Shown: positions 4,808 through 60,616, counted from the first letter of the whole stretch. The stretch is DNA of 63,914 nucleotides, filler included, from Folioceros fuciformis (GCA_049999805.1; 5 parts of 5 records of this genome joined end to end with filler, not necessarily neighbours in it); one strand, 5' to 3'. The notes: generated by a model not told the origin, from the sequence alone. Translations and numbers: made by a program.

Positions 4808-5079
4808 TGCTCGAATCTAGGGGTGACAAGAACAAACATCGAGGGAACCCCCTCATTCACCAAGGGAACCTCCTACACAAGTCGACCAGCCACACCCCAT
4901 GTATCATGGCATATATTGTCTCCTTGGTACTGTCTGGGGTAGGAATTACATGGCTTGCATGCCCCTCAGTGCCCTTTGCCACAGCGATCGAGTTGCTCAC
5001 AAGGAATAAACCCCCCTGGGCTTCCCCTCGCTAGTCACAAGCAACGCCTACACATCGACCCTCCCTCTACTTGGCCAAC

Positions 5080-17700: not shown

Positions 17701-17822
17701 CTGACTGCCACAGTTCCACAGAGATCATGTCAAGGCTGGAACAGAGAGACATTGTTGCAAGGGATGGGTACCGTGTACATCGATTCACAGCTGGTCGTTG
17801 CAGTTGTAAGGACCGACCGTGA
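14748..17822 (+). pseudogene. PDF-motif + PLS-class PPR + E + DYW:KP RNA-editing factor (copy 1), intronless and frame-disrupted
   Basis: Two WxxFFxDPxxWWDNR..PDF(R)R..GEVLWL motifs (14973-15108, 15268-15417). P/L/S repeats ([29 protein letters not shown]) from ~15600, then an E domain. DYW 17415-17822 has KLPAMASIEV, CWHAEKLA, KNLRMCADCH and ends CSCKDRP*. Stops at 15301 and 15352; frameshifts at ~15250, ~15868, ~16243 and ~17412. Confidence 0.92.
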
Positions 17823-27010: not shown

Positions 27011-29406
27011 ATGTACTCTCAGCCTCGGCCTTGCGCTTTCTCTCCGGTTGCTTGGTATCTTGCTGTGCCCTCGCAGTCCAGCTCCAGCTACCCCTCCGCT
27101 GCTGCCTTTCCCGCCTCCTACGCCTCTCTCGATTTTTCTCGCCGCTTGCGCATTCGCCATTCTGTCGCTGCTGCGGGGGATATCTTTGTAGGAAATCCTC
27201 TTCCTTGTCACTTCCGGCCTTTCGAGCTGACGCGTCGGCCGGCTGGCCATGGCCGTGCCAACCAGACCATTGTGGCTGTTATGCCTGGACTTGAGAATCT
27301 CACTCCTCCCATGGATCTTGCGCGTATCAAGGTAATTGGAGTGGGCGGTGGCGGCAACAACGCCATCAACCGTATGATAGGCAGTGGCCTGCAGGTTGGT
27401 TCCGCCTCCCGTTCCATGTCAAGTCACCGTCCTTGTTTCAGCTGTCCTAGGAAAGGAACGGAAAGATCTCCGCATTCCGTCCTGTCATTTGCGCCAAGAA
27501 GACCTCTCGAGAATTTGCTAGCATTTAACTTGGCTCGTTGTCATTTTTCCTTGCAATGGTAGTATGATGGTGTGCAGGCCAGCATGCCTTCCTTGTTGAA
27601 GATGTGTACCTGAACCCCACCCCTGCCCCGATTCTTTTTTGTGCAGGGTGTAGAGTTTTGGGCTATAAATACGGACTCTCAGGCTCTGTTGCAGTCAGCT
27701 GCCACGCATCGTGTGCAGATTGGAGACCAATTGACAAGAGGACTCGGTAAGATTGTGCTGCGGGGTCTGCACCAAGCTGTGTTTAGTTCCTATTTTGTTC
27801 AAGAACTATGCCTGTGTTACCTACCTGCTCCCATGCACGTCCGGATATTACCGGGAAACGACAGATGCCAACATCTGGTTCTGAACGACCTCTCGTCTGC
27901 AGGCACAGGAGGCAATCCGGAGCTTGGTGAAAGGGCTGCTGAGGAGTCTAAAGAAGCAATACAAGAAGCTGTGTCAAATTCAGATCTTGTCTTTATTACT
28001 GCTGGGATGGGAGGTGGCACAGGGTCTGGTGCAGCCCCTGTTGTAGCACGTCTTTCCAAAGAGGTCGGACATCTGACCGTCGGCGTTGTCACTTATCCGT
28101 TCACATTTGAAGGCCGGCGACGGGCTCAGCAGGTGATCCCATTTCCTGATGGTTTTAGCTGCGTTACGTTGCTACTCAGTTCATTATCTCGCCACCTTGT
28201 CTGCGTGCCTGATTTTGTAGATGGAACTACTAGTCCCACATGGCTATAGCTTATCAGCTATGGCCACTAGCTAACTACACACCATCTCCTTTAGTTGCCT
28301 GTCGCATGGGTGGTAAATGGTCGCGTGACCAATCATGAAGCCTGTCTGTTTGCCTTTGTACGGAAACCACACAGTAGCTGATGTGAGTTGTATTGTGTAA
28401 TGCTTCAGGCGCTTGAAGCCATTGAGCAGCTCCGCAAGTCCGTGGACACTCTCATCGTCATTCCAAATGATAGACTTCTAGATGTGGTGCAGGAGCAAAC
28501 ACCTTTGCAGGAAGCATTTCTCCTGGCAGACGATGTTTTGCGACAGGGTGTCCAAGGAATATCGGATATCATTACGGTAAGCAACGTGTACCAAGTATTT
28601 CTTTGTACTTTTGAAAGTAATCCTGGTCAGGCTTAGATGTACATAACATATCCTCAATTCATGGAAAGGAGTTGTACTTACAAGTGTTGTGTGGAGGATT
28701 GGGTTCACTGAAATCCTCAACAGTGCTAGCCTTCTTCCCTTGGATGCTCTACTTCCTGTGTGTGGTATGCACCATGAATGACATTGAACCTTTCTTGTGA
28801 CAGATTCCCGGACTTGTCAATGTCGACTTTGCGGATGTGAAAGCTGTCATGAGCAACTCTGGAACAGCCATGCTTGGAGTTGGAACATCCACAGGGAAGA
28901 ACCGGGCTGAGGAAGCAGCTCAGCAGGCAACATCAGCACCTTTGATTGAGAGGTCCATTGAGCGGGCCACTGGCATTGTGTACAACATAACGGGGGGAAA
29001 GGATCTCACATTGCAAGAAGTGAACAGAGTATCCCAGGTAGTGTCCTGTATTGGAATTCAAGTCTCGTTCTCGTTCTTTGAGATACTAGTCTTGCAGCAG
29101 GACGCTAGGGTGCTGGCGTGCTTGCTAATGGGGGCTTTCCTTTGAACTTGTCAGGTCGTGACGAGTTTAGCAGATCCTGCAGCCAATATCATCTTCGGTG
29201 CGGTGGTGGACGAGAGGTACACTGGATCAGTGAACGTAACCATCATTGCCACTGGATTCTCTCAAACCTTCCAGAAGACAATGGTTGAAACTAAGCCCTC
29301 TCGGCAGCAAGAGACTGCGGAATCAAGATCAGAATTGCCATGGAAACGAAGTGCCCCTGTGACCTCAAGATTTCCTCCAGGTCTTGGCGGTAAAGGGTAT
29401 CTTTGA
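27011..29406 (+). CDS. FtsZ1: Plastid division protein FtsZ1
   Basis: Exons 27011-27394, 27647-27746, 27903-28132, 28409-28576, 28804-29037 and 29155-29406. Motifs [13 protein letters not shown], tubulin signature GGGTGSG and NVDFAD. VTYPF is FtsZ1-type, and the FtsZ2 C-terminal core peptide is absent. Confidence 0.96.
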
Positions 29407-30105
29407 CCGATTCCCCCATCCTTGGAGTTGGACTCTGCATTTTCTGCTAGCTTGGAGTCGGCTGAATGTCTCTGGGGGCCATTAGTGGTGGCAAAAACAT
29501 CAACCCGGGTGCCAGGAAGAATGTGGTGTCTTGGACTCTGGGTACCGTGTGCTACATGTATTCTACCTACTATGTATTGCCGACGTTCCTCGAGCATTTT
29601 TGTTGGAATGTCCAACGATTATCACCAAAGCATGGTGGGACGAGGAACGATTCGACATTCCAACAGGAACGCTTTTATCTCCAGGTGTCTCTCTACTTTA
29701 TGGGAAACTGCTGGGCAGGAAGTTGTTGATTTTTCATGTTACATATGTTTCTATATCAATGGAGCTTAGGTACTGTACGTGTGTGTATGTAGGTACAGCG
29801 CACATACGGTAAGTCATAAGTGCACCTGAGCCGTCAAATTGTGCATGCCACATGCACAGGGTGACGGCGTATCGTGCAAACTGATGAAAGTGTGTTTGAG
29901 ATACGTACATATAAAACGGTCCACCGCCTGCCACCTCACTTGAATGTTAAGGAAAACTGAGCAGGGGTCACCATCGGTGTGCCCGCATCTCTAAAGTTCC
30001 CCAATGCGGGACGTTCACGTGATGGCGTTCCTCTAGTCGCTGATACAAGAGACGTGAAAGCGGCTGCGATTCGGAAGTCTAGGGCTGCGTCTCGAAACCA
30101 GGAAG

Positions 30106-31981
30106 ATGGTCTCGGATGCAGAGCTTGCACAACGTCTCACGGCCATCCTCCAGAGCGCTGATCTTTCTACCACTACCACTACCACCATCCGACAGCGGCT
30201 GGAGTCTGAACTCGCCGTAGATCTTTCCACAAAAAAAGCTTTCGTGCGACAGCATATTGACGCCTACTTGCAGCAGCAACAGCAGAGCGAAGCAGACGTT
30301 GCTGACGGCTCTGACGGACAGGATGGGTGTGAGGAGGAGGAGGCAGACGTAGATGCTGATGCAGAAGTAGAAGCAGAGGAAGACGAGGACGCAGAGGACC
30401 AGGTAGGACGAGGCGAGCAAGATGAGGAGGCTGCTGAGGAAGATGAGAAACCCACCAGAGCCTCCAGGCGATCAATCCAATCAGAGCCTGACTCCAAGCG
30501 GTCGAAGGCGAAGATTGACAAGGCCATAAAGAAAAGGTACGAGCCCTTATCTGGTGACAGTCTGTGCTTTGGCGTTTGATAGTGGAGAAGCGTTGCCAAT
30601 ATTTTGCAACCTGACCATTCCCAGTCTTCACGGTCCTCTGTACCAGTTGAGTGTTAGGGCATGTCCCGACCATCTTCCCTTTTGTTTCAATAAATTGTCA
30701 GAGGTGTGAGCAATTGGAACTGTTTGATTGATGTGGCTTGTTGAGATGATGAATGTCCAGCCTCCTTGAACCGTTTCCCTTCTCCTTTCACTTTGTGCGG
30801 GCACGCTGCTGGAAACCATCTGCTGGCTTGTGTTGTATTGTCTTGTCTCCCATGTAATCTGAGCTTCTAGTTCCTTTCCTTTGGCTGATGCCAACGTGTT
30901 CGACAATGACAGCTTGCCTAAGGAGAAGAAGAAACGAACAGGAGGTGCGGGTGGGCTGAACAAGGTGTGCGGCCTCTCTCCAGAGCTTCAAGTTATTATT
31001 GGAGAACCAGCTCTGCCGAGAACCCAGGTATTTTCACCAGCGGACATGCTGGCTTTAATGGTGCTTGCCAGGGGTTTGAAATTCGTGGAAGGGCCACCTT
31101 ATTGGATTCTTGGAACGTAAGATGGTCGTCCCTGTCAGAGGATGGTTGTAGTTCAAAAATTTGTGAGATTCCCAAGCTGTTAGCGATTGCCATTTTAGGT
31201 GGTGAAGAACCTTTGGGTCTACATCAGGGAGAACAAATTGCAAGATCCAGAAAACAAGCAGAAGATCATATGTAATGAAGCTTTGCGGGGGCTGTTCGGA
31301 ACCGACTCTACGGACATGTTCCAGATGAACAAACTTTTGTCAAAGCACATCTGGCCTCTGGATACCAGTAAATCTGAAGGTTTGTTTGCACAGCCTCACT
31401 TTGCGTCTGACAGAAGTCTGGCGTGTTTTTCGGCCAGGAGATGCTAAGGTTTGTTGATCTGACATCGCCTCTGCAGATGGGGATGCCCAACCAAAACCGA
31501 AGAAAATTAAGAAGGAGCAATCAAGTGGAAAGGGCAAGAGTGGATTTCTTTCACCTCGCCCGATATCTGCAAAGCTGTCCAATTTTTTTGGCACTGGTGA
31601 GACCGAGGCTCCACGCGCAGATGTGGTGAGAAGGATATGGGATTACATAAAGCACAATGGACTCCAGGTTTGTGTGACAAGCGGACAATTGTCTTTTTTG
31701 CATATGCTTTTGTTTCTCTCTTTTTCAAGAGTGGTTTGTTCTGGGTTCTTTTCATTCGAACATAGGATGAAAACATTCCCAACCATGTGACCGTCGCAGT
31801 CGATGTCCTTTGTTGCTGCCTTGTATGAAAGTCATTTAATTCTCCAGCTCTCTTCTTGCAGGACCCAGCGGATAAAAGAAACATTCTGTGTGATGAAAAG
31901 CTTGAAGAGCTCTTTGGGTGTAAGACTTTTGTTGGGTTCGAAATGACCAAGCTTTTGCAAGAGCACTTTATAAAGGCGTGA
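30106..31981 (+). CDS. DEK_C + two SWIB/MDM2 domain protein (UAF30/spp27-like)
   Basis: N-terminal MVSDAELAQRL..IRQRLESELAVDLSTKKAFVR (DEK_C), then an acidic linker. SWIB1 SPELQ..LPRTQ/VVKNLWVYIRENKLQDP..MFQMNKLLSKHI; SWIB2 PRADVVRRIWDYIKHNGLQ/DPADKRNILCDEKL..MTKLLQEHF. Spliced with GT-AG introns. Confidence 0.93.
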
Positions 31982-38454: not shown

Positions 38455-40296
38455 ATGCGTGTGATCGTGCCACTGCAAGGCGTGCTCCAGGGCCGCCTGG
38501 GCATCGTGTTCGGCTCCATCATCCCCTGCGCGCTCTTTTACTTCATGCAGCTGCGGCTGCGGCGATCCCGCCAGTCACACGTCCAGGCAGCGGAGTCGGA
38601 GCAGACGCCGGATCACGAGCAGGCATCGCGCGACGCTGGCCCGGGCTCCGACGCACACTTGCATGCGGCCGTGGCTGTGGCTGCGCGGGCTTTGGCAGTG
38701 CTTGAGCCCGATATCGAAGTGGCGGCCTACTACCAGGGCTGGGAGGAGTCCAACCGCAACGCCTTCCACCCGCAGCGCAACCCCGCTGGCTGCATCCAGC
38801 TTGGCTTGTCGGAGAACACGGTGAGCAGGGCCGGCGTTGGGAAGCGCGCCTGGCTAGACGCTAGGGTTTGCGTGCCTGCGTTCGTGCGGTGCTTGCGAAG
38901 GCGGAAGAGACAGTGGTGCGATTTTGATGTTGGATGGTGTGTTTTTGTGTGTGTGATGGCAGTTGTCGCTAAGTCTACTGGATCAGTGGTTCGCTTCCCA
39001 TGGGACTGCGCCTGCGGAGGAGATTCTGAGTATTCTCGGCTTCACGGCCATCGCCGGCTACCCCGATGTGTACCACGGACTTCCGATCTTCCGATCGGTA
39101 AGCTGCATTACGAGTAAGGGTCAAAGCTCGGTTGACCCGCATTCCTAGGCGGCTGACCGCCTGCGGGCGATGCTCTCTCGCAGGCTCTGGCCAGCTTCAT
39201 GGAGGAGGCCTTTGGCGGAAATTTGCATTTCGACGCGGACAAGATGGTTGTCACCACCGGGGCAACTGCGGCCATTGAGATGTTGGCTTTCTGTTTGGCG
39301 GAGGCTGGGAATGCGGTCCTTGTTCCTGCTCCAGTGTACAGTGGGTGCGCGTCAGTAGTTTCTTGGCTAGAAAAGCTGTCTACAAGGTTTAGCTCGTGTG
39401 TGTTGTCAACTTCTCTGTGCTTACTTCCTGTCGCCCTTTTCAGGTTTGAGAGGGATGTCAAATGGCGAAGTCAGGTGGAACTCATTCCAGTCCAGACAAG
39501 TAGCAAGAACAATTTTTTGCTGACGAAAGGTTCGCTGGAGAAGGCTTACGAAGAGGCCAAGAAACAGGGGAGGACTGTGAGGGCTTTGCTGCTGACGTCG
39601 CCTTGCAACCCTGTCGGCACAGTGTATGATGAGGAGTACCTTCTGCGGCTGCTGGATTTTGTGAGGGAGAAAGATATTCATCTTATCTCCGATGAAATCT
39701 ACGCCGGCTGCGTACACGGGAGTGCGAAGTTTGTCAGCTTTGCGAAGCTTGTGTCGCAACGTCCACAGTGTGCAAGCAGGGTTCACCTAATTTATGGGCT
39801 GTCGAAGGTTCTTGGCATCCCCGGTTTCCGGGTGGGACTCATTTATTCGTGGAATCAACAGGTTCTTGATGCTGCAGGCAGGTTGACTCGGTTCAGTTCG
39901 GTTTCCACTGAGACACAACAGGTTCTTCATTCTGTCCTTTTGGACAAGGAGTTTGTGAAATCTTACATCCCAGAGAATCAGAGGAGGCTGAGGGAACGTT
40001 GGAGGGTGGTGCGTCACGGACTGCAGCAAGCTGGCATCGAATTTGTAGAATGTGATGCCGGTTTCTTTTGCTGGATAAGGCCCTTGCCGAGGATCAAGAA
40101 CAGAGACGGCGAGCTGAGTCTGTTCAGGGAGTTGCTCTATGATGTGGGCCTGAACGTCACGCCAGGGAGTGCCTGCAGGTGCAAGGAACCCGGCTGGTTC
40201 AGACTATGTTTTGCTATGGTAGATGATCAAACAATGCATGTCGCTTTGCATCGGTTACGAAAGTTTGTCATTGATCATCGTGCGCATAACGGTTGA
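38455..40296 (+). CDS. ACS10/ACS12: ACC-synthase-like PLP aminotransferase (ACS10/ACS12-like clade)
   Basis: Exons 38455-38820, 38963-39097, 39184-39344 and 39444-40296. N-terminal MRVIVPLQGVLQGRLG..SIIPCALFYF is characteristic of ACS10/12. Also IQLGLSEN, SPCNPVG, ISDEIY, PLP-Lys motif GLSKVLGIPGFRVG and EPGWFRLCFA. Confidence 0.94.
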
Positions 40297-43039: not shown

Positions 43040-46000
43040 CGACCACATCGCCCTCTCCAAATCCCCGTGACTTTTGCAGGCATTCAACGAAGACCTCAGG
43101 CCCACGACATTCCTCTGACCCTCCATTGACAACACCAACTTCTCAGCCTCATCCAAACGACCCGCACGCCCAACAAGGTAAGGTCAACCATGCAATTGAA
43201 GTGCTCAATAGAATAGTAGGTATGATGCCATACAGGTCAGACATGGAAGCAAATTGCTCGCGACCCTCGTAAACTAGACCACCGAGACTGCAAGCTACTA
43301 CAAGGCAAGAAAAAGTAGCCCCATCGGGCTGAACACCGGCAACTAACATGTAGTCAAAACAACTTAACGCTCTACGCCAATCATCACATATACCATACCC
43401 AGATATCATGGCATTCCATGACACCACAGTCTTGGTGTTCATGCTGTCAAAAACCTGGCGTGCGTCTTCCAATTCACCACATTTCGCATACATGTCCACC
43501 AGGCAGTTGCCCAACACTACCATGTCCAGCAGTCCTTTTCCCACGATCTGCGAGTGCAGCTGCCTCCTGCCCTTTTGCAACGCACCAGTGCTTCCACAGG
43601 GCCTTCAGAAGGCAACAAAAAAGTCACATGGTCACCCAAAATAAGGCCTTCTTGCTCCATTCGGCCGTACTGAATAAGCGCCTCATGTCCGAGCCCTTGC
43701 CGAGCATACCCGGCAATCAGGGCATTCCATGTCACCACATCCTTCATGGCCAAGCTGTCAAACACCTGCTGTGCGTCTTCCACTTCACCACATTTTGCAT
43801 ACATGTCCACCAGGCAGTTGCCCAACACCACATTTTCCAGTAGACCACTTTTGACAAGCTCTGAGGGCAGCTGCCTGCCCATCTCTATGGCGCAACAGGC
43901 ATCGAGAAGGCAAGCAAAAGTAACATCATTAGCTATGACGAGGCCCTCCTGCCCCACTTGTCCATACAAAAACAAGCCCCTCAATTCCCAGACCTTGCTG
44001 TGCATACCCAGCAATCAGCGCCGTCTATGTCACCACATCCTTAGCGGCCACTCTGTCAAAAAACACGGCGTGCATGTTCCACTTCACCACATTTTTGTAT
44101 ACATGTCCACCAGGCAGTGGCCCAGCACTACGTTATCCAGCAGTCCTCTTTCGACTATCAGTGAGTGCAGCTGCCTGCCCTTCTGTAAGGCACCACTGCT
44201 TCCACAGGCTTTCAGAAGGCAGGCAAAAGTCACATCGTCAGCCAAAGTGACGCCCTCTTGTTCCATGTGTCCATACACACCAAGTGCCTCTTGGCCAAGA
44301 CCTTGCTGTGCATACCCAGCTATCAGGGCATTCCATATCACCACATCCTTTGTGGCCAAGCTGTCCAAAAAACATTGCGTGCATCTTTCACGTCACCACA
44401 TTTTGCATACATGCCCACCAGGCAGTTGGCCACCACGACGTTCTCCAACAGTCCCCTTGCAACAATCAGTGAGTGCAGCTGCCTGCCCTTGTGCAAGTCC
44501 CCACTGTTTGCACAGCTCTCCCCGCAGGCAAGTAAAAGTGACATGGTCAGCCGAACTGATGCCCTCCTGCTCCATTACTACTCCATAAGACAGCAAACGC
44601 CTCATGTCCGAGCCCTTGGTCAGCATACCCAGCAATTACGGCATTCCATGTCACCACATCCTCTGTGGCCAAGCTGTCAAAACCCTGTCGTGTATTATCG
44701 AGTTCACCACATTTTGCATACATGTCCACCCAGCACTACTCTATCCCAGCAGCCCTCTTTCAACGATCAGCGAGTGCAACTGCCTGCCCTTCCGTAAGGC
44801 ACCCGTGGTCACAAGGCAAGCGAATGTAACATGGTTACCCAAAGTCAGCTCATCCTGCTCCAACTGCCCATACAGAGCAAGAGCATAATGTCCTAGCCCT
44901 TGCTCCGCATATCCAGATATCAGGGCATTCCATGTCACCACACTCTTTGTGTTCATGCTGTCAAAGCGTTGGTGTGCATCTTTCATTTCACCACATTTTG
45001 CATGCCCAGATATCATGGTATTCCATGTCACTACATCCTCTGTGGCCATACTGTCAAAAACCTGGCGTGCATCCTTCAGTTCGCCACATTTCGCATACAT
45101 GTCCACCAGGCAGTCACCTACGAACAGGGGTAGTGGGAATGCCACTGGAAAATCTCACAATGCACTTTCCTGCCAGATTCCAAGTCGGTAGCAAATCCAC
45201 ACGCTTGAAGGACAGCTACAAAGACGTGACCATTTGGCCTGACTCCTGAACGTCACATCTCGTGGTACGGTTGCATAGCCTCCTTAGCTTTGCCGTGCTT
45301 GGTGTGTGCGAAGATTGTGGAATGCCACATGAAGGCATCTAGTTTGCCCACCCTGGTGAACACGTCCATTGCCTCCTCCAGTCGACCTAGACATGCATAC
45401 ATGCGTAAGATAACGTTCCCCAATCATGCATTCCGCTCATACCCGAGTTTGAGAGTGAGGTGATGTACTCGTCGACCCACAACTAAATCCTTGTTGGCTG
45501 CGCACAGGTTCAGCACAGTGTGAAACAGCGACAGAGAAATTGCAGAATCTGATTGCGCCAGAGATTCCAGGGTTTGAACGTCCTCAGCAAGCTTTCCCTG
45601 CTGACATACCATGCGGACGGTTGAAGCCATTTCGCATCGTGCACGCCTGCCAGGTTCATGCTTATCTGGACAGGTAAACTTGGAAGGAGAGGCACCATAA
45701 CCCATGTGCACATCCCAGGAAACGAGCTGCTCATCAACCAAAGCTGGCTTGAACAGGTTGTTCAACCACAGAACCTCACCACAGCCCTTACGTCGGAAGT
45801 CAGGCGAACGGGAGCTCTTCTTACCCCGTCTGTTATCTTGCCAGATGGTAGGTGTTGCCACAAGTTTTTCTGCTCCTGGCGACGACCATCGCTGGGTATG
45901 TCATTCACCCCCACGCTTCGTATCGGAAGTGGAAGTGATGGGCCTCGTGTAGCGCTACGCATGAATGCCATTCGCGATTCTGCACCCCTGACAGATTCAG

Positions 46001-46138: not shown

Positions 46139-47308
46139 GTTGTCTCACTTCTGCAGCCAGCCAGCGAGGGATGAGAATCTGCATCTCGGAGGCAACGCCT
46201 TACAGATTACTATTCAGCAAGCCGAAACGAGTCGCACAGCCTGGCATTATAATGAAACCATCTCTGTCTACCAACACCGACCCACGCCCCGTTCACAATT
46301 CCACTTGACATCCCATTCTGAAGAATCCCGACAAGAACAACTTACTTGAAATCAACCTGTGCGCTAGGCAACTCGAGATTCATCGACGAGAATTTGCTTG
46401 AAATCTGCTTTTGGAGTTCTTGCCATTTCCCACGGTAACTGCACAAACCGAAACAGACCCCAACACAGCACACAGCAGGTCGGTCTACTATTTCTTGAAT
46501 CTGAACCGACCCAGAGATGTCAGATATGTCACTACAAGCAGCTCACGGTACAATGCAACACCGTGTTCCACATGCGGTCGGTCTGGAACTTGCCTTGCAC
46601 ACACGTTTCGTCCGTGACCGCGAACTTTCATAGCTGATGCTGCTGATGGGAATAACAATGTTATGTTCCTACTGTTTTGTGAAGAGAACCGCTGGGGCTT
46701 TACTCAAAAAGGACGAGAGACAAGGCTGTGCTCCAAACCAGGATACAGGACGCCGAGAACACCGAACCCAAAACACTGGACAAGGCCCCGTTCATGTGCT
46801 ACCAACCGTAATCCAGTTATCACAAGCCGTGAGCTACAGCTCCGTTCTGTCTGGTGTCACTGTGACACGAAGGCAGGGGCTCCAGACGCGATTTCAGAGA
46901 GGCACATCCTGCCCCAGCTTTTGGCTGGTCGGGAAGGGAAGATGGGGCATACATCCTCACGCTGGTGTACAGAACATTGTAAAAACCAGCAGACCCCAAA
47001 CTTGAACTTGACTCTTGAAACCAAGAGCTCCCAGCTGTGTACAAACACAGCACCTTCTTCCCTCCCTACACATAACATCCATGACCCATCATCTGTTCGT
47101 CCACACAAGGACCCTGTGAGAGGTCTCCCTTGCCAAACAGGAACTGTGTAATGCATAGAAAGGGAGAAGTGAGAAGATCCTATTGGAAGCAGTTCGATAC
47201 ACCAACAAACAGACAGTATGTAGCTAGCGACGATACCTGACACTTGATTGAAGGCACTACATGCCCTGGCCACACGCTACTCACGCAAGCCAGAAGACCA
47301 TGGAGTGG

Positions 47309-50300
47309 CTAAGACCAGTATAGCTTTTTCCTAAGTGTGGTGCGCACCTCGAGACACTGAAATATCTTCGTATATCCTGCTTCGGTTTCACGCCGGCCCT
47401 CCATATCCGTGACCTTGCCAATCACGCGTGTTAGAATGCTCAACACATCTCCTGTTTGACAGCTCCGATTGATGGCTTCCATCAACGCTATGATAAGTGT
47501 GAGCCTTCCTCGACATTTCTCAAAGATTCAACTCCAGGACTGGTGGAGAAGACGGTAAGACAGTCGGTCACAGAATACAGGAGTCGACTTCTCTCGCTGA
47601 CAACCTGACTTCCCTCAACGTCTAACCCCTTGTCCTTGCTGCTAGAGGCAAGGTTGCCGGTGCCTGACCCCTCCGCATGCTTCTTTGCAACAAGGTTGCC
47701 AGTGCCTCGACAGGCATTTATGATAACCACCTTAGGCTTGTTTGCCAGATACTCGCATTCAGCGATGGGCTTCAAAATATCATCCTCAACGTACAGCTTG
47801 TCGGCCTCCTGTTCTGCACCTATGCAAACGTATTGTCTTCCATCGTCGTTTTCGGTCCCACCATGTGCGTTGATGCAAAACAGAAAGCCATCGTCTTCTG
47901 CTAGGGCAGGGACCTTGAGAATTTGCCTCAACGTTCTCTTCACTTCCTCCTTAGGGCCCTTCACCACAATTTCTAAATCAAACTTCAAGTTGTCGAGAAC
48001 AGCTTGAAGTCGCCCTCTGTCTACCGCTCCTCCAGGCCTGTCTTCTTCCATGCTCACAATCATGGCCAGACCTCTTCGTTCACCTGCTTTCACCCTTTCA
48101 TTAGGGTATGCTGGTTCCTCCTGCGCTGACTCGCCTTGAGGAGGTACCTCTGAGTGGCCTTTGGCAGCTGAAGAGTGACTCGATGCATGAAGGGATAGAC
48201 GTGTCCGCCGTTCCTGCAAAACATTGTGAAGCTCATCGCTGCTCAAGAGGTCCCTGGCTTTCTCAGGAGCAGGGGGTAGACCAGCTTCAGGCATTGGTGG
48301 CCAGGACCATCGATACTCGCACGAATCCGAGACGGAGGAAAAGTGCCCTGGACTGCTTTTCTCATTTTCGAGAAGGCACTCCATTAACCTCTGCGTGAGA
48401 ACTGATTGATTACGTCGGTAAACACATGGTGTGAGGTTCTCCACGCACACAGTCCGGATGATCCCTTCTACGAGTTCAACTCCAGGACTACCTTCAGGAG
48501 AAGCACAAAAATCTCTTATTTTTGCGGCAATACGCATCTGGAGAAACTCGATGGTTTCGTCTCTGCTCTTGAGTGACCTCATCAAAATGTCGACACGGTC
48601 ACCGATGTCCCCGGTCTCCTCCCCAGTATCTCCGCTGCTTTCCAAAAATACATCCATGCCATCCCAGCTAAAGGTGATCAAGTTGCGTGCGATGGTATAC
48701 TGATGAGACTGCATACCGCAGAGTCCATCAAACAAGACCTGTCGTAAGATGACCTGCGATGCACAACCATTGGCGATGTCATGAAACCCGAGTGAGGATA
48801 AATGAGTAAGAATAAAGAGCTCACAAGCGTAAGCAAACATACTTGGAATCTCGGAAAGAAGCCTGGGCCGAGAAACGTTTTCCTTTCATCTCGGCATTGT
48901 AGCCTCCTCCCTACGTAATTGTGATTGCCCGCCGTACCACCATTCCACTCCAACTGTCGTTTTCCGCTTAGAGCTTTCCCATTATCGTCATCCAAGGTGA
49001 AGGGGACGAAGAATCCAGGACCTCGATCGTCTTTGACAGCTCTGTAACATAGGTTTACTGTCTCCATCAATGATACCAGGTCTTCAACACCAATTCCGTC
49101 CGCTTGCGCGCGTAGAAGGATCGGTCCCAAGGCTGAACGGAGGAGCCTTTGAGCGACAAATCCATCTGAGAAACGTCCCAAGACACTCGTGGCCGGTCGA
49201 GTTAGAGGCTGAATGAGACGCCCCAAAAAGGAATGACTGATCCATTGTGGATTTACCACCACAGCATCTAGACCTTGGAAACAGATGACCCTACCTACGT
49301 CGTGCAGGTAGGCAAGCATTGCTTGAAGGCGTCTCCCATCATCATCTTGTTGAACGTTAACTTGCCCATCCCCTACCCAGTCTAGAAACAAGTTTCTGAA
49401 CTGCTCTTTCGTCACAATAGGCTGAGCTGGATTTCGAGATAGCCACGCAGTCAAAACAGCACTGAATCGATTGCATATCTCCGGAACCCTGAACAGTCCC
49501 ATCTTAAATAAATCTCGGAACGATTGGAACAGTTAATCCAGCAAGGGCTCTACAGTCTCTGTAGATCGGGCATCCATGATGAAAGGAGGCTCGGTGGTAC
49601 TAACAAGAAGTACCTGCTGAAAATCGGAGGCCAACTGTGTGACGACTGGTTGAAGCAGATCGAGTACTATTTCAGCCTCCTGAGCTTGCATCTGATCCTT
49701 GTGGGTGACAACCACAAGTATCCGAGGCAAACCAGAGCCCACATTGCGACAATTAGAGTTGATGAATCTAAGCCAAAACTTGAAGCTGTTTCTGCACTTG
49801 GCCTGCAACATTTCACTGGACGGGAGGAGTTGCCCACCCTGCAGGGCATCAAATGGATTGAATGCAAACACGAAGACACATGCTTGGTTCAAGGTCGGGA
49901 ACAAGTAGTCTTGCAGGGCTCGGTAGTGAGCTTGACCAGCCAGATCCCAGATGGTAATTTCCATGTCATGGTCGTTGGGCAACGCCTCGATTTCAATACC
50001 TTCCGTTCTGAGCGTACCCGTGTCGTTGCGCAACACCTCGGATTCCAAGCCTTCCGTTTCAGATATGGTCCCCGTGTCGTTGCGCAACACCTCAGATTCC
50101 ATGCCTTCCGTTTCAGATGTGGTGCCGGTGCATAAGGAACATACCCATCGCCAAACAGGAGACATCGCCGAACAGATCCCTAAACCCTGTCCAAGTTCGA
50201 CCCAAGGAAAGGGTCGAACTTGGACAGAAGGGTCTGTTCCTTCCCTTGCCCATGCGCGAATCATGGTGGTGCGGAGAGTGGTCTTGCCTGCCAAAGGCGC

Positions 50301-51699
50301 ACCGCACAGGAAGAGGCGCCCGGCCTTGGGCTTCACAAGCTCTTCTTCTCCGTCCAGGAGCGAACGCCAGTACTTCCTTTGAGTCGCATTGCGTGCCAAG
50401 GTTGCCCTGATGATGGCGCCCTTTCCCTCGGTCTCCCATACGCTCGGTACCCTCACCCTTCCGTAACGTGGTGTTGACTTGGAGGGACTGCATCAAGTCT
50501 CCGAATACGTTATTCGGAGACCAGAAGCTAATGTCCAGCTCAGTCAGAGAAGCGTTGCCCTCCAAAGCTCTCATCACCGCTTTCTTGCAAGAAGCCGCGC
50601 CTCCATAAGGCAAGCGCAGGACACGCAATGATTTCCATTCCGGGAGCAGCTGGGCAAGGCACATCCAACACTCATCACTAACCCCATCATGGTAAAATCG
50701 AAAAAGACAAAGGGTGACGAGGGTGGAGTTGTGGCGCAAGCCGTGGAGGCCGTAAATAGCGTGCAGGGTGGTGACCAGCTCCACGATGCGACGGTTACTG
50801 CGCAGCATTCCGGCCAGGGCGTCTGCCGTGCCTGCCTCCCCGATACTCTTCGATGTCTGCAAACAAAGCTTTGTGACGCCAGAGATAGACATGGAGGAGG
50901 AGGAGGAGGCTGCATCCTCATCATCCTCGCGAACATCACTGCTAGCGAGAGCCGGGGTGAAAGCGAGTTTGAGCACAATGCTCAAAGGCCCCCCGAGGCC
51001 GCCATCGTCACCCAAGGACAACATCCTGAGGGTGGCACACAACGGAAGGGCCTTCGCAATGCACTGGGCTCCCGCCTCATCCATGTGGATGCTCCTCAGG
51101 TCGAGGAGCTTGAGACAGGGCGCAGTGGCCAGCATGCGGGCCAGGTGCTGTGCCCCTTCAGCATCTCCCACGCGGTTGAAGGACAAGACCAGATATTCCA
51201 GGACAGAATCCTTGTTGAGGCCTTCGACCAGGGCACCAAGTCCCGCCGCATCAAGCCCGACACGCACGACTGACAGGCGCTGCAAGCTGCGACTGGAAGC
51301 AATGAGCTGGCCCAGAGCCTTGCAAGCAGCCTGCCTTCCAAATCCTTCACACCGCGACACTTGCAGATCTTGTAGGGAAGGGTTGGATGCCAGACCCTCC
51401 AACAGAACCGACACCTCATCCTCCCGAACCAAGCCGATTCCCCAGTCGTCGTGGATGTTTAGTTTTGGGCCGAGGCTGCGGCAGTTGGCAATGGCTGTCA
51501 ACATCCGCCTGCGCACTCGCCAGTGCCTCGGGCCCTCATCAAGCCCGTCATTTTCTCGCCGCTTGAAGTAGCCCCCGTACTCATCTTCCCGCAGGTCGGG
51601 GAGTCGGGACAAGGCATTCCGTTGCAGATCTAGCAGCAGTTGTTGCAGATCCGCAGGCATCGCGAGCCAGTCCTCCTTCTCCTCCACCTCCTCCGCCAT
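47309..51699 (-). pseudogene. TORNADO1-like Roco protein (LRR-Roc-COR) fused to a C-terminal caspase-like peptidase C14 domain; three lesions
   Basis: RNI-like LRRs 51699-50460. Roc GTPase GAPLAGKTT / RTEGIEI / IWDLAGQ / VVTHKD 50330-49560. COR LHDVGRVI..VVNPQW..GRRLQC..GFFPRFQ. Intron 48754-48842. Caspase 48072-47312 (NAHG, KPKVVIINACRG, FSTSPG.ESLRN..GS, TTLRKKLYW*). Frameshifts at ~50458 and ~47498; in-frame TAA at 49533. Confidence 0.9.
49975..50130 (-). repeat. 54-bp in-frame tandem repeat (~2.7 copies) inside the Roc domain
   Basis: TGTTSETEGMESEVLRND / TGTISETEGLESEVLRND / TGTLRTEGIEIEALPND. Confidence 0.85.
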
Positions 51700-52223
51700 G
51701 CTGCGCAATGCTATGCTATGCTACGCTAAGCTAAGCTGTGCTCCACAGGACAAGAACAAGAAGCAAGCAAGTATGGTGCGTGTGATGTGGGTTCCGGGGC
51801 AGCACCATGCAAAGGGGTGGGGGGGAGGGGGCTCGGGGAGTTGTGGCCGCCTGGGTGGCAAGATAGATATATCATCTCATGTAGGGTTTAGGGTGGTTTG
51901 GCAGCAGGGCGATCGTCCTCGTCTGCCTCTAGCCTCGGCAGTGGCCAATGGGAAAGAGTCTAAACTACGGGAAGCAACGAGGCCATGTTGATTATGATTC
52001 TCACCCTAGTATCAGAGACATGGTATGCATTCTGTGCATTCTGATGGCGCGGGCGAGGCGTGGCGGGGCGAGTGTGCCTTCCGTTTTGCATGAAGCGCAA
52101 ATGGTAGCAATGCCTGCCTGGCCTGGCCTGGCCTAGCGTTGGCCCGGCTGGAGGCCTGGCTTCCTGTCTGGATTGTTGCATCCCATTCGTGAAGCAAGCG
52201 AGGCAAGCAAACGGCGCGGGAAG

Positions 52224-54135: not shown

Positions 54136-54235
54136 NNNNNNNNNNNNNNNNNNNNNNNNNNNNNNNNNNNNNNNNNNNNTTAATTAATTAANNNNNNNNN
54201 NNNNNNNNNNNNNNNNNNNNNNNNNNNNNNNNNNN

Positions 54236-55202: not shown

Positions 55203-58200
55203 AGTGCCCGGGGTTTTGCCTCCACAGCTATCACTCCCTGATTGTCACAATGTATCACTGTTGCCTCGATTTGTGCCATGCCCACATCAGCTACGTTCCT
55301 CCTGCACCAAATTGCTTCCTTTGCAGCTACCGTGAGTGCTTTATATTCTACTTTTGTACTGGAGGTAGAGATTGTGTTCTGCTTCTTGCTCATCCAACAT
55401 ATGGGACCACCAGCTAACATGAACACGAATGCAGACAGCGACTTCCTGCTATCCAAGTCTTACGCCCAATCCGAGTCTGAGAATCCTTCCAAGGTAAGCA
55501 GACTCCCTTCAGCTCCTGCATACATGATGCCATGTGTGGGAGTTTGTTTTAAATACCTGAAGGTTCTTTTCACCTAACTCCAGTGTTCTGGACTTGGGTT
55601 TTCCAGGTACTGCGACTCCAAACTAACCGAGAATGCTATGTCTAGTCGAGAGACGTTTGCTAAGTAAATCAATGTCCCCACTGCATGCCTGTACAGGGTC
55701 CTTGCCATCTCCTCTATCTCTTCTAGTGTGAGGGGAGTCGACTCCGTGTGAGCTTTACACCAGTAGCAAGCGGGGTAGTTGACCCATTCGCATTTTCCAG
55801 GTTGAATTTCTTTAAGCTGTCTCGTACATACTTGTGTTGGCAAATGGTCAACTTCCTAACACTTCTCTCTCTGCTTATCTCGATCCCCAGACACCAAGTG
55901 AGCTCTTCTAGCTCAGTCATCTCGAATTCTTTCCTGAGAAGTACTTTGACCTTTTGCAACAAGCTGCACCTACCCTTGGTTGCAGCCAAAACCAGGTCGT
56001 CAACGTACAGCAGTAGGATCAAAAATGCTTCTCCTTCACTCCTGACATACAGACTTGGGTCTGCAGTACCCTGCTTGAAGCCTAGCTTTTTCACGTAAGC
56101 GTCTATACAATGGTTCCAAGCCCGTGGGCTTTGCTTTAGCCCGTACATGGTTTTTACCAACTTGCATACTAAGTGCTCCGTTCCAGGTTTGACGTATCCC
56201 TTCGGCTGCTCCATATACAACTCTTCTTCAAGTTTGTCGTGCAGGAAGGCCATTTTCACGTCCATCTGCTCCAAATCAAGGTCCAGGTGTGCTGCCAGTG
56301 CCAGCACCATCCTCAAAGTTGTAAACTTTACAACCAGAGCAAAGGTATCATTAAAGTCCACTCCTCGAATATGAGAGAATCCTCGGGCAACCAGTCGTGC
56401 CTTGTACCTTTCTATGTTGCCGTCAACTTTCATTTTTCTCTTGAAGACCCACTTGCACGAAATTGGCTTTCGTCCTTTCGGTAACTCAACCAGCACCCAA
56501 GTTCCATTCTGAATTATTGATGCATATTCATCGTCGACAGCTCTCTTCCACTGTTTGGCCTCTAGCCCTGAGTACCCTTGTGTCTGTGATACAGGTTCAG
56601 TCGAGTCTGTTGTGGCTGTCAGCAACGCTTGGACAAAGGCATTTGAGGGCTGGGAATCTTCAAGAGTTTCTGCATTGTCACTTGACTGTTCATCTGCTAA
56701 TTGTACACCCATTGAGAATTGCTCAGAGGTAACTAGAATGTCTGCAACTCTGGCCCTTGACCCTTTCACTTTTGCTTTAGACTTGTTCGTACGCCAGTCC
56801 TCCATCTCCAGCGGGGGTTCCTTCCAGGGAATGTTCCAACCTCTTAGATTGTAACCACTTCTTGGTTCAGCTGCAGGAGCTTCCTCCACTCTAGGTATAT
56901 TTTACCATCAAGCATATCCTAATCTGCCTGCTAAGCCAAGCCAGAGTTGTCCACAGTATTGCTGTCAACATCAGCCTCTTCATCTTCAGGTGCAAGAGTT
57001 CCTTCACCCTGCTCGAAGTAGAATACTTCTGCATCTGCTGTTTCAACATAACCTCCTGCAGGAGACCACTTGAGGGCATCTTCATCCTCGAAGTCGAACT
57101 AATCACCTACCCCATCATCAGAACCTGCACTAAAATTAGGTAATGCAGTGCCCGGTGGTTTCAGCAGACTTCTCTCATCAAAAACTACGCTCCTTGCATG
57201 ACTAACAGCCCGAGACACAGGGTCATAGAACTTATATGCTTTTATACCATTTGTATAGCCAATGAAGAATAACTTTTGGGCCATGTCTTGCAGCTTAGTT
57301 TTCCTCTTCGGCTTGGGAACAAACTCATACGCTAGTGAACCAAAAATGCGCAAATGCTGGACAGCTGGCTTCCGTCCCCACCAGGCCTTGAACGATGTAG
57401 TACCAGGTAGCACTCTCGTGGGCAGTCTATTCAGCAAGTAGTTTGCAGTATTTATGGCCTCCGCCTAGTAACTTCGAGGCAAATGTGCTTGCTTAAGCAG
57501 AGCCCGGGCCATCTCCTGCAGAAGCTGGTTCTTCTTCTCAGCAACCCCATTGAGTTGTGCAGTGTACAGTACAGTCAGCTGTCGTTGGATGCCGAGACCC
57601 CGACAATAAGCTTGAAATTCTCCCGAGGTATATTCCCCACCATTGTTGGATTGAAGGCATCGTAAGCTACGGCCATGATGACGCTCTCCTAGCAACAAAT
57701 AATCCTTGAAGTGCTGCAAAGTCTCACTTTTGTGTTTGAGAATGTACAACATACAATAAGGAGTGTAGTCATCCATAAAGGTTAAGAAGAAGGAGCCTCC
57801 ACCAATAGACGATACCGAGATGGGACCACAGATGTCTGAATGAACGAGGTCCAACGGGGCAGCAGCCCGATGTGCTCCAGACTTGTCAAATGGTAACTCA
57901 TGGTGCTTTCCATATATGCATGCTTCGCACAGAGACAAATCCCCCACTTGATCTGGAATCCCATCTGAATACATTGTGCTTTTTGACATGGCCAGAAGCC
58001 TGCCACCATGAGGATGTCCACAACGTAAGTGCCAGACAGTTGCAACTTCCTCCGGAGACAGGTTACCCCCAATGCCAGCAACATGTAGCTCAGGTAACTT
58101 GCTGCTTGCTATGCTTAGCTGATAAATGTCATTAACAGGGTACCCTTCTGCAATAGCTACACAAGGATCCGTACTTTGGACTATCGTGCACTTATCCTCT

Positions 58201-60616
58201 GTAAACAAAACTTGCATTGGCTGATTTGAAGTTAGTTTCTGTATTGACAGCAGATTTTTCGTAACTGCAGGTACATACAGAACATCATCCAGCTCCAAGC
58301 TTCGGTCTTTATGCAGCTGCAACCTGACTTTGCCAGTTCCAATGATAGGTAATGTGCTTTCGTCTCCCAACATCACCAACTGTGCTTCACTGTACGGTGC
58401 ATACTCACTGAAGCAAGCCTTATTGTGGCATATGTGCGCAGAGGCACCAAAATCAACGAACCAGTCTGAGGTTTGAGAACGAGAAGTGGTAAGGCACACA
58501 GTCAGGATTACTTGTGCCGACTTCTTCTTTGGTGCACGCACTGTATGTGCTTCAGGAGCTACAGCAGCACCTTCCTTCCTAGGCTCTCCGGCCTTCTTGC
58601 GGCAATCACGTGCCCAATGGCCAAGTATTCCGCACCAGTTGCAGTTACCTGCTCGCTTCTGATTGCTTGAGCTCTGTCCAGGTCCGCTTGACCTTCCTCC
58701 TCAACTTGCATTCCATGACCCCCTCTAGCTTGATTAAAGGGTTTTCCCCTACCAGCAAACAGGGCTTGCTGACCCTGTGTCTGCTGTCTTCCAGATCTGG
58801 AGGACAGCCTCGTGGCTTCCTCCTGCAGCATAGCACCAACAACACCGTTAAATGTCATGGGATCTGAGTCTATCTTCAAGGCTTTCGAGATTCTGGCTTC
58901 GACCTTTGCCATAGCCTGCTGGCCAGTAACAAACGGCCCAAAACTTGGAGGTAATGAGCTTAGCAGCCTGCATGCTGCTTCATAGTCAGTGACTTTAGTG
59001 CCTGTGGAGCTTAGCTCAGCACGTGCAATGCGAAATCTAGCAATGTAGTGCTCAACTGACTCTCCCTCTATCATTCGCAGGCCATGGTACCTTGCAAAGG
59101 CGGACATGGATGCGACCATGTCGTGGGAGGCGAACATCATTGCCAAATGATCCCACATGTCCTTGTCTGAGTCCCCTGGGCCATCGGAAGCCTGACATAG
59201 CATCTCTAGAGCCAGGCGTGACCTGATGAGGTTCCTGGCTTTGTTGTCTACGATGCTCCACACTGGGAAGTCAGCTAAGGTTACTTCAGGCTTTGGTACA
59301 TCTCCACTTACCACGCCCCATAGGTTTTTCTCTTCAAGAGTTCCTTGCATTCGCATAACCCATAGGTCATATTCATTGCCTATGACCAGACGGTCCTTCT
59401 CTTTAAAACCACCGCTGGTCATTGACTGCAGACCAGCAAGCATTTCGTCCCTTGCTTTATCGTCTTCGTCCATGTTGAAGTTTCTAAACAACCGGTAATT
59501 CTCGTGTGAGAGTTTTGTGTTCACTGATGCACGGTCAAGATCCACATCAACTTTTTTGTTCAAGTCATCATCTTCATCACTAAACTCGAAGAGTCCAACT
59601 TCCTGCACAAGCTTCCTTAGCCATTCAGGTGTAGTGTACAAACTCTCCTACTCACTCATAAATCAACAGCTCTCAACATGAGCTGAGTCGACTTGCCTTG
59701 ACTAACACACTGCATAGGTTGGACGATACTGCCTGGACTGACTTATCTGAGTGGCTCTCTCATTTTCCTGCAACTGTGGCTTCATGAGTACAAAGATTTT
59801 CAGGTCTCTGTTTAAGGTGTTCTTCTAACCTAGCAATGTTGTCTGTCAAGGTATCCAAGGTGGTGAGGATGTGTTGTGTACGACACAAGGTTGTGCTATT
59901 GATGTTGTCCAGACGATGGGTTAAATTCTGAATTGCAGCAGTGAGAGACTCTCCAGTTTCTATTATATATGGCTGAAACTGCTGTCGTGACTCGGGTTCC
60001 CTTTGCCTGCCTAGCACAGACTTACGGTAAGCATGAATGCTTGGATTAGACGTGGCTAGGTTAGGAATACGCTCATATTGCTGATGATTAACATACCTCA
60101 TGCTTCTAGGCAGTGGGAAGTTTGAAATTTCGTAAGGTGGGACGGGATGTACAGTCCTATGCTGATTGCCTCCATTGTAGCGACATTGAGCCATTCTAAG
60201 GGACAGGACTGGCCATCTCCTCAGGTTCTGACTTCACTTAGTTGCTGTGCAGGACCAGGACAAGTGCTACACGCGCCTTGCAACGTTCTTGCTGAGTCCT
60301 CCTACGGCAGTCCTCACTCTCTTTCGGATGCGAAGGGCTCTCTTCTTCCTCGCCTGCTCATCACGCCATAGCACTGCTTCCACAACTCAATCGATCATGA
60401 AAGCAAGCTCCGGATTCATAAACTGGCGCAGGAACATCATCCATTCCACCCACTGAGGCAAAGTCAGGCTGCTCATGGTGACAGGTATCCGAGATTCTCT
60501 AACTTGTGTGCAGGGTGTTGGTGCGATCCATAAGTTTTCTGTCTAGGTAATAGAAATGATTGCGCCTCGATAGAGGGCGCAGGAGTTGCATCAACGCTTG
60601 GCCTGCTCTGATACCA
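55203..60616 (-). mobile_element. Ty1/copia LTR retrotransposon 2, degenerate
   Basis: PBS 60605-60616; gag 59641-58600; frameshifted Zn-knuckle CNWCGILGHWARDC; protease WFVDFGASAHIC; integrase HSDICGP..NNGGEY..NGVAEKKN; RT KWVFKRK/YKARLVARG/QMDV/LYVDD; RNase H FSDSDWA..WMSKKQ..CDNQ. Confidence 0.93.
60605..60616 (-). promoter_or_regulatory. Primer-binding site (tRNA-iMet) of copia element 2
   Basis: Perfect TGGTATCAGAGC on the minus strand, directly after CA (LTR end at 60617). Confidence 0.85.

Follow-up and report, generated by a model that had tools for sequence, protein, structure and literature searches.

The 63,914-nucleotide (nt) stretch of Folioceros fuciformis DNA analysed here (the window, with all coordinates counted from its first letter) carries, on the minus strand from 51699 to 47309, a gene that likely encodes a Roco protein joined to a protease. 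Leucine-rich repeats (LRRs), a Roc GTPase domain and a COR domain are followed by a domain whose sequence and modelled fold point to a caspase. The locus is probably a transcribed, disabled copy in a multi-copy LRR-Roc-COR-caspase family of a seed-free land plant, whose intact members would unite sensor, switch and executioner. The window copy is broken and of limited value in itself; its worth is that of a pointer to the family.

Reviews, in the portions available, describe caspases as restricted to animals and plants as having metacaspases only (PMC5756287, PMC9104976, PMC10896300, PMC13272413). An earlier reading of the same DNA, hereafter the original prediction, knew of no description of the architecture in plants. 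Our literature search agrees: it found no description of a Roco-caspase fusion or of bryophyte caspase-type proteins, supplements and subscription-only papers being outside its scope.

The protease domain

Queried against PDB sequences, the window's protease domain (211 residues) gave 149 matches at E ≤ 1. The best 60 of these 149 are all caspases, headed by Dronc (E = 1.2e-5) and caspase-2 (2.1e-5), then caspase-1, -3 and -8. A relative, P0002 (42% identical), matches zebrafish caspase-3 with an E-value of 1.3e-15 over both the large-subunit (p20) and small-subunit (p10) parts, and its best 60 PDB matches shown are again all caspases. No metacaspase or paracaspase stands among the best 60 for either query. 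The blocks shared by P0002 and caspase-3 are PRRGGAVD/PRNGTDVD, AHG/SHG, NACRG/QACRG, SLRN/SWRN and KQCPVLVSTL/KQIPCIVSML; no motif block lacks its counterpart, the S1 arginines and the C-terminal strand included. An exhaustive search of 1.84 billion representatives with the window's domain returned 90 matches at E ≤ 1e-3, with a best identity of 46%; KPK..C occurs in 82 of the 90 and the metacaspase motif D[SACT]CHSG in none.

The window's domain has the His of an AHG motif, a Cys in KPKVVIINACRG at the position of the QACxG-type pentapeptide, and Arg at both S1 positions. We take the S1 positions to be Arg179, Gln283 and Arg341 in caspase-1 numbering; metacaspases and MALT1 have acidic residues at the two Arg positions. 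The first Arg, in EDR, aligns with EFR of caspase-2, and the second, in SLRN, with THRD of Dronc. The original prediction had located the His, the Cys and the two arginines, and all these coordinates are exact on checking the sequence. Both arginines of the S1 pocket it proposed align with the caspase S1 positions; the Gln283 equivalent is Asn (NACRG).

Fold and dimer were predicted for P0002. The core of the model has a predicted local distance difference test score (pLDDT) of 80-97, and the Foldseek matches listed are caspases only, with E from 2e-20 to 1e-17 and a template modelling (TM) score on the target of 0.77-0.89. In the VIA structural search, caspases reach Z = 24.0-28.8 at 21-30% identity (caspase-9 28.8, 4jj7 28.1, 4pry 28.0, CED-3 25.0, Dronc 24.0). 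The non-caspases c-FLIP, MALT1 and legumain score 23.0, 22.4 and 17.2; metacaspases score 12.8-19.0 at 13-16% identity (AtMC4 19.0, AtMC9 18.6, Yca1 15.8, TbMCA2 12.8). The superposition originally proposed thus ranks caspases above metacaspases, with MALT1 near the lowest caspases.

Two copies of P0002 residues 172-430 are predicted to pair with a score of 0.74, against 0.48 for the best control. The predicted interface, residues 413-423 with symmetry at 417:417, is the classical caspase dimer interface formed by the last β-strand; partner pLDDT is at least 74, and the runs share at least 50% of their contacts. Of 30 proteins whose solved structures pair two copies of one chain, 21 reach the mark applied to the dimer score; of 23 solved as single chains, none does. 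It is possible that this pass reflects memory of solved caspase dimers. Altogether, PDB matches, structural scores and motif counts place the protease domain with the caspase type (MEROPS C14A-like), not with metacaspases or paracaspases, which is what the original prediction had proposed.

Gene layout, splicing and lesions

Five open reading frame (ORF) pieces tile the minus strand from 51720 to 47309. From 51699 downwards, the order is ribonuclease-inhibitor-type LRRs, Roc, COR-A, an 89-nt intron, a COR-B-like linker and Peptidase_C14, amounting to about 1433 residues when the lesions are ignored. The LRR-Roc-COR-caspase order announced by the original prediction is upheld by Pfam on the five pieces and by Atlas and fold matches. 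By tblastn with eight family proteins, the window holds one gene copy only. Three sequencing runs from two studies, under the same organism label, contain the stretch: X1 (2017), and X2 and X3 (2025, DNA, one sample). The features of the gene are:

50113-51720 (-): ORF piece; Pfam LRR_6, E 4.1e-4, 20.6 bits, below the cut-off of 23.4
49533-50492 (-): ORF piece; Pfam Roc, E 2.6e-6, 28.1 bits, cut-off 27
48678-49532 (-): ORF piece; Pfam COR-A, E 6.1e-6, 26.6 bits, below the cut-off of 35.3
47488-48885 (-): ORF piece; Pfam Peptidase_C14, E 3.2e-17, 63.4 bits, cut-off 21.4
47309-47527 (-): ORF piece with no Pfam family; reads LIIALMEAI...FQCLEVRTTLRKKLYW
46730..51827 (-): extent of X1 contigs, read as transcript; 5' end near 51827, 3' end near 46730
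51697-51699 (-): start ATG, read in the sequence
50459..51699 (-): N-terminal LRRs, putatively of ribonuclease-inhibitor type (sub-cut-off LRR_6, Atlas and fold matches)
50420..50458, approximate (-): lesion 1, one-base frameshift from the LRR to the Roc frame; the overlapping ORFs 50113-51720 and 49533-50492 lie in different frames
49536..50419 (-): Roc GTPase domain (Pfam Roc); P-loop GAPLAGKT at 50280-50303, DLAGQ and THKD beyond
49971..50130 (-): 54-nt tandem repeat, about 2.8 copies, score 170-193, inside Roc
49533..49535 (-): lesion 2, in-frame TAA between Roc and COR-A, read in the sequence
48843..49532 (-): probable COR-A domain (sub-cut-off Pfam and Atlas feature matches)
48754..48842 (-): 89-nt phase-0 GT..AG intron, skipped in an X1 contig
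48124..48753 (-): COR-B-like linker, conserved with the N-terminal parts of the relatives P0002, P0004 and P0099
47704..48123 (-): caspase p20 part (Peptidase_C14; PDB alignments to caspase-2 and Dronc)
48037-48039 (-): S1 Arg (AGG), caspase-1 Arg179 equivalent, in EDR
47863-47865 (-): catalytic His (CAT), in AHG
47716-47718 (-): Asn at the caspase Gln283 position, in NACRG
47710-47712 (-): catalytic Cys (TGT), in NACRG, within KPKVVIINACRG
47566..47703 (-): intersubunit linker, 46 residues, with Asp residues in SSKD, GLD and SVTD
47312..47565 (-): caspase p10 part (Dronc and family alignments; C-terminal QCLEVRTTLRKKLYW motif)
47518-47520 (-): second S1 Arg (AGA), caspase-1 Arg341 equivalent, in SLRN
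47494..47496 (-): lesion 3, loss of one base from a T run; the p10 frame shifts after ...EEGS
47309-47311 (-): stop TAG, read in the sequence

The N-terminal 413 residues have Atlas feature matches to LRR_6 clusters (score 0.95). In a single-sequence model, strand and helix alternate with a period of about 28 residues, and its Foldseek matches include NLRP3 (5.7e-7) and ribonuclease inhibitor (5.4e-6), as well as the LRRs of NLRP1 and NOD2. Because of these matches, the modelled repeats are assigned to the ribonuclease-inhibitor type. The Roc translation holds the G1, G3 and G4 motifs (GAPLAGKT, DLAGQ and THKD). Its Pfam match spans profile positions 43-90 only, partly owing to the repeat insert, which adds near-identical 18-residue units, (T/I)SETEG(M/L)ESEVLRNDTGT, between the P-loop and DLAGQ. 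An insert of this kind is unusual in a GTPase switch region.

Atlas feature matches of the next piece to COR-A clusters score 0.97, with 29 of 30 in two COR-A sets, taken as a lead only. The COR-B-like linker, columns 77-160 of alignment A1, is named from resemblance, without a Pfam COR-B match; tblastn of P0002, P0004 and P0099 onto the window extends to 48708, 48657 and 48594, respectively. The profile check suggested by the original prediction therefore came out mixed: Peptidase_C14 and Roc pass their cut-offs, COR-A and LRR_6 stay under theirs, and COR-B is undetected. On the motifs and matches listed, the Roco assignment is likely.

Within the caspase part, the intersubunit linker is weakly conserved and of variable length in alignment A1. 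Beyond the third frameshift, p10 continues as had been claimed: the LIIALMEAI...FQCLEVRTTLRKKLYW tail agrees with the C-terminal consensus of the family, and residues 230-277 of another relative, P0003, match 47458-47315 by tblastn at 46% identity.

X1 records 1-6 tile 46730-51827 with zero mismatches, 48503-48563 being uncovered by the records listed. The depth of X1 is 0 in 46500-46700 and low past 51827, where the DNA of X2 and X3 continues. In an X1 contig of 1138 nt without mismatches, 48751 is directly followed by 48841; the 89 bases left out (side 188) lie at 48754-48842 once the allowed shift of 2 is applied, while X2 and X3 contigs read straight through the intron and neither run has a skipping contig. 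Because the intron is skipped and coverage stops where the DNA runs go on, X1 is taken to be RNA; on this reading, the gene is transcribed and spliced, and a single mRNA holds COR and caspase. Both the GT-AG intron between COR and caspase and the spliced COR-caspase transcript foreseen by the original prediction are thereby found, the transcript in this single contig. Another X1 contig matches the window down to 48841 and then shows 28 differing letters closely like the start of the next exon, which suggests a paralogue transcript with the same exon boundary, or an alternative acceptor.

The three lesions named by the original prediction are real, and X1 contigs carry all of them. No insertion or deletion variant occurs in the zone of lesion 1 in the X1, X2 and X3 contigs covering it. 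The TAA of lesion 2 is covered without mismatch by an X1 contig (48841-49790) and by contigs of X2 and X3 (48564-49790). At lesion 3, one contig each in X2 and X3 shows the changes 47502 A>T and 47486 C>A alongside an A inserted behind 47494, at a depth of 11.7 of 35.3 in X2 and 9.21 of 19.1 in X3 (0 of 91.2 in X1). In a manual minus-strand reading, this variant restores the frame to ...EEGTHFIIALMEAI and fits the family consensus GTxF..AL.EA. An allele or very close paralogue with an open p10 is therefore present in the DNA of the source plant.

Since the TAA and the first frameshift are free of variants in all three runs, the locus is most likely a transcribed pseudogene; the window copy cannot make an intact LRR-Roc-COR-caspase protein. 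A 116-nt joint in one X1 contig (50341>50458, side 43) was considered as an intron curing lesion 1 and rejected: its minus-strand ends are GG..AG, its length modulo 3 is 2, whereas restoring the frame would take 1, and the joined frame meets a TGA immediately. This joint probably comes from a paralogue.

The family and its likeness to known systems

Source records were looked up for 30 of the 90 library matches, and 13 of these have an organism name: Marchantia polymorpha (2), M. paleacea, Riccia fluitans, Nothoceros aenigmaticus (3), four arthropods, Mantoniella antarctica and a picozoan. No vascular plant is among the 30, and the arthropod matches have identities of 26-35% only. In an IQ-TREE tree of 87 rows, the window and all bryophyte rows (Marchantia, Riccia and Nothoceros) form a clade of 17 with a support of 83 in the Shimodaira-Hasegawa-like approximate likelihood ratio test (SH-aLRT). 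Support is 87 when P0020 is added to the clade, 100 for Marchantiales and 99 for Nothoceros. The tree leaves out 11 redundant cluster members or fragments (P0009, P0091-P0098, P0100, P0101) and segments of fewer than 150 residues. The phylogeny of the C14 domain that the original prediction asked for groups the window with bryophyte caspase-type rows, in a tree that has neither root nor metacaspase outgroup.

In the 18-row clade, the Arg179 equivalent is kept in 16 rows (two gaps), His in 16, Cys in 16 and the Arg341 equivalent in 14, and 15 rows have Asn where caspases have Gln283; the 69 remaining rows of the 87-domain alignment show Gln there 48 times and Asn 15 times. P0002, P0004 and P0099 (the last from Nothoceros) have a COR-B-like part and a caspase in one frame in alignment A1. 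Because the three share this segment directly before the caspase, the COR-caspase junction appears to be conserved beyond the source plant. The search for relatives called for by the original prediction yielded liverwort and hornwort members, and no intact full-length LRR-Roc-COR-caspase.

The source plant itself has many paralogous copies of the caspase domain, since most contigs are only 90-95% like the window (81 of 116 in X1, 125 of 192 in X2, 96 of 158 in X3) and a G>A change at 47748 is found in 9 (X1), 10 (X2) and 12 (X3) contigs. The 19 loci from a metagenome scan, 1-5.8 kb long and 24-50% identical in their best segment, are both too short and too distant to tell the architecture. In a scan of 185,579 prokaryote species with narrow patterns, 122 pattern matches contained no relative, which is weak evidence.

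P0063 and P0066 are caspase-type domains with KPK..NACRG, one in a 601-residue protein of the prasinophyte Mantoniella antarctica, which has a long repeat region at its N-terminus, and one in a 390-residue picozoan protein. Such sequences hint that caspase-type proteases are wider among non-animals than reviews state.

The clade resembles animal caspases (C14A; caspase-3, -7, -8, -9, CED-3 and Dronc) in its modelled fold, in the motif blocks that begin at the S1 Arg and end with the C-terminal KQxPxxxSxLxKxLYF/W strand, in the His/Cys dyad with both S1 arginines and in the use of the last β-strand by the predicted P0002 dimer. Contrary to animal caspases, it has Asn for Gln283 (NACRG instead of QACRG) in most rows and no CARD or DED prodomain, the N-terminus being Roco or, in Marchantia, α/β-hydrolase; its host is a land plant.

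The Marchantia and Riccia proteins (PTQ31690.1 / Mp_6g00900; M. paleacea KAG6554914.1; Riccia fluitans KAL2622267.1) belong to the same clade and share with the window the blocks SME..R.G..DR, AHG, N(A/S)CR and LSWR(L/P). They differ from it in that one to three α/β-hydrolase repeats (Abhydrolase_6, DUF676) stand before the caspase in place of LRR-Roc-COR. An α/β-hydrolase class is reported at the N-termini of NLRs of non-flowering plants in the available part of PMC11218826. The records bear the automatic labels 'Caspase family p20 domain-containing protein' or 'SERAC1': the bryophyte caspase domain is visible in databases and undescribed in the literature found.

In Roco proteins (LRRK2, DAPK1, MFHAS1, Dictyostelium and bacterial Rocos, TORNADO1), N-terminal LRRs are followed by Roc and COR-A, as is likely in the window gene. 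Their output is a kinase, a death domain or nothing, whereas that of the window gene is a caspase, and its Roc carries the 54-nt repeat insert. The LRR-ROCOs of brown algae have likewise been proposed as immune receptors, according to the portion of PMC11378527 available. The modelled LRR fold of the window gene also resembles that of NLRs, but neither NB-ARC nor NACHT is found in any of the five ORF pieces at Pfam E ≤ 0.1.

With the apoptosome (Apaf-1/caspase-9) and the inflammasome (NLR/caspase-1), the window family would share a repeat sensor, an NTPase switch and a caspase effector acting by induced proximity. Unlike them, it has all parts in one polypeptide and a Roc GTPase as the switch instead of an AAA+ STAND ATPase. 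Bacterial STAND/GTPase-caspase-like fusions would be similar in joining a sensor and a switch to an effector of the caspase superfamily; in bacterial conflict systems, about 70% of the caspase domains in effector position are reported inactive in the part of that study available (PMC7159879). Plant metacaspases (C14B; AtMC4, AtMC9) have the clan CD fold (Z 19.0 and 18.6 with the P0002 model) and a plant host in common with the family, and differ, as far as the available sources go, in their active-site motif, acidic S1, Arg/Lys specificity and Ca- or pH-regulated monomers.

Should bryophytes have a family that unites all caspase motifs with a basic S1 pocket, the statement that plants have no caspases would need revision, and whether caspases are of ancient eukaryotic or transferred origin would become directly testable. 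As named records, the Marchantia members offer a genetic handle in a tractable model. A Roco-caspase fusion would be the first Roco protein with a protease output and a natural single-chain analogue of the apoptosome and the inflammasome, useful for the study of signalling by Roc-COR dimerisation and relevant to LRRK2.

Proposed mechanism, rival explanations and the rest of the window

In an intact member, one chain of about 1430 residues would combine ribonuclease-inhibitor-type LRRs, a Roc GTPase, COR and a C14A-like protease. Its LRRs would sense a ligand or a guarded state. Roc-COR, which in other Roco proteins mediates nucleotide-dependent dimerisation, may be the switch. It would pair two caspase domains through their last β-strand, giving induced-proximity activation as in initiator caspases. 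A basic S1 pocket (Arg, Asn, Arg) would direct cleavage after an acidic residue, probably Asp, and the output would likely be cell death or immune signalling. For intact members, we infer the sensor-switch-executioner function, the activation by COR dimerisation and the Asp specificity from sequence.

Several points weigh against this reading. The fold and the dimer were predicted for P0002, not for the broken window copy, and the LRR model has a low pLDDT (55.7). COR-A and LRR_6 lie under their Pfam cut-offs and Roc is barely over; Pfam finds no COR-B at E ≤ 10 in 47491-48750. Searches of the PDB sequences with Roc, COR-A or the read-through Roc-COR retrieve no Roco protein: they give weak matches to Rab-23, Arf and RbgA (best E 0.0059) and a chance aldolase. 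The RNA label of X1 is itself a guess, and the RNA reading is drawn from the splice and the coverage ends. With Asn for Gln, the P1 preference may differ from Asp, and P0004, P0016 and P0035 are missing His or Cys. The sources looked up cover a part of the matches, the tree is a quick search with moderate support (83), unrooted and without a metacaspase outgroup, and none of the sources yielded a full-length relative with LRR-Roc-COR-caspase intact.

The family may be real without its caspase domain being a death or immune executioner: a developmental Roco pathway, with a patterning role such as that reported for Arabidopsis TRN1, could use the domain as a scaffold without catalysis or as a protease for processing or signalling. 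TRN1 is the only plant Roco gene studied in detail and affects growth and patterning, as the available portion of PMC11378527 has it, and the three relatives without His or Cys recall c-FLIP, against which the P0002 model scores 23.0. Yet His and Cys are each retained in 16 of 18 clade rows, and the family is multi-copy, divergent (best cross-species identity 46%) and recombines with α/β-hydrolase repeats, all of which is typical of immune families and no proof; we hold this explanation to be rather unlikely. The chance is smaller still that the locus itself remains functional, through separate LRR-only and COR-caspase products (from an internal start), or because it is intact in other strains and the lesions are recent or strain-specific. 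It is transcribed and correctly spliced, its His, Cys and S1 residues are intact, and the X2/X3 variant at lesion 3, at about single-copy depth, restores the frame and the consensus GT. However, that variant may be from a close paralogue, the TAA and the LRR/Roc frameshift are invariant across the three runs of both studies, and X1 contigs bear every lesion. Reinitiation far inside a 5-kb eukaryotic mRNA is, moreover, unusual.

Just as improbable is a foreign origin, whether by horizontal transfer of the caspase domain from an animal, protist or bacterium or as a contaminant or chimeric contig. Caspases are reported as animal-restricted in the accessible parts of PMC10896300 and PMC5756287, the plants among the 13 named matches are all bryophytes, and the tree is unrooted. 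Contamination is ruled out because the gene lies amid plant genes, its short GT..AG intron is spliced in the plant's own run and runs of two studies carry the stretch, which answers the doubt about a contaminant raised with the original prediction. The gene's neighbours are a pentatricopeptide repeat (PPR) gene with an E motif and a DYW deaminase domain (E 4e-32), FtsZ, a class I/II aminotransferase, DEK_C and copia elements. Against a recent transfer stand the deep branches and the span of the clade, which takes in a hornwort and three liverwort species, the low arthropod identity (26-35%), the caspase-type relatives from a picozoan and the green alga Mantoniella and, weakly, the pattern-limited prokaryote scan; an ancient transfer may have occurred. 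Least credible by far is a misread metacaspase, paracaspase or orthocaspase. Pfam PF00656 takes in caspases, metacaspases, paracaspases and orthocaspases, a match to it does not discriminate by itself, and MALT1 scores little under the lowest caspases. But no library match has D[SACT]CHSG, both queries find caspases alone among their best 60 PDB matches, the Z scores and identities of caspases exceed those of metacaspases, and Arg stands at both S1 positions.

We thus retain the disabled copy of a sensor-switch-executioner family as the probable reading. A bolder one is tentative, and we lean against it: true caspases would not be an animal invention, a C14A lineage with an Asp-type (Arg/Arg) S1 pocket persisting in bryophytes, with relatives in a prasinophyte and a picozoan. 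It would have been wired to LRR-Roc-COR (in the source plant and probably in hornworts) or to α/β-hydrolase repeats (in liverworts), giving single-chain immune or cell-death receptors of the sensor-switch-executioner kind, which vascular or seed plants would have lost at a later stage. In that case, some of the long-puzzling 'caspase-like' activity and logic of plants would have a literal caspase counterpart in early-diverging lineages.

Elsewhere in the window lie the following features:

15355-17822 (+): PPR gene, intact-looking, with the E motif and DYW deaminase domain (E 4e-32); its C-terminus reads ...CSCKDRP, not DYW
about 22000-22850 (-) and 43150-45900 (-): further PPR-like ORFs, partly fragmentary, the latter directly downstream of the Roco-caspase gene
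26880-29150 (+): plant FtsZ gene, intron-split; Tubulin/FtsZ GTPase domain with E 7e-31 for 27614-28249
30058-31790 (+): DEK_C-domain gene, ordinary plant gene in look
39157-40296 (+): class I/II aminotransferase gene (E 5e-67), possibly ACC-synthase-like, ordinary plant gene in look
8035-10824 (+) and 55723-59647 (-): copia-type retrotransposon bodies with gag, Pol beta-barrel, integrase and reverse transcriptase, the former split over several frames

A short N run at about 54150-54190 gives X in two plus-strand ORF translations. From 4000 to 7700, the GC content is 0.59-0.61 with a strong negative GC skew, and long Pro/Ala/Ser-rich ORFs lie in several frames on both strands; the only tandem arrays there are two short ones, of periods 21 and 32, at 4200-4285.

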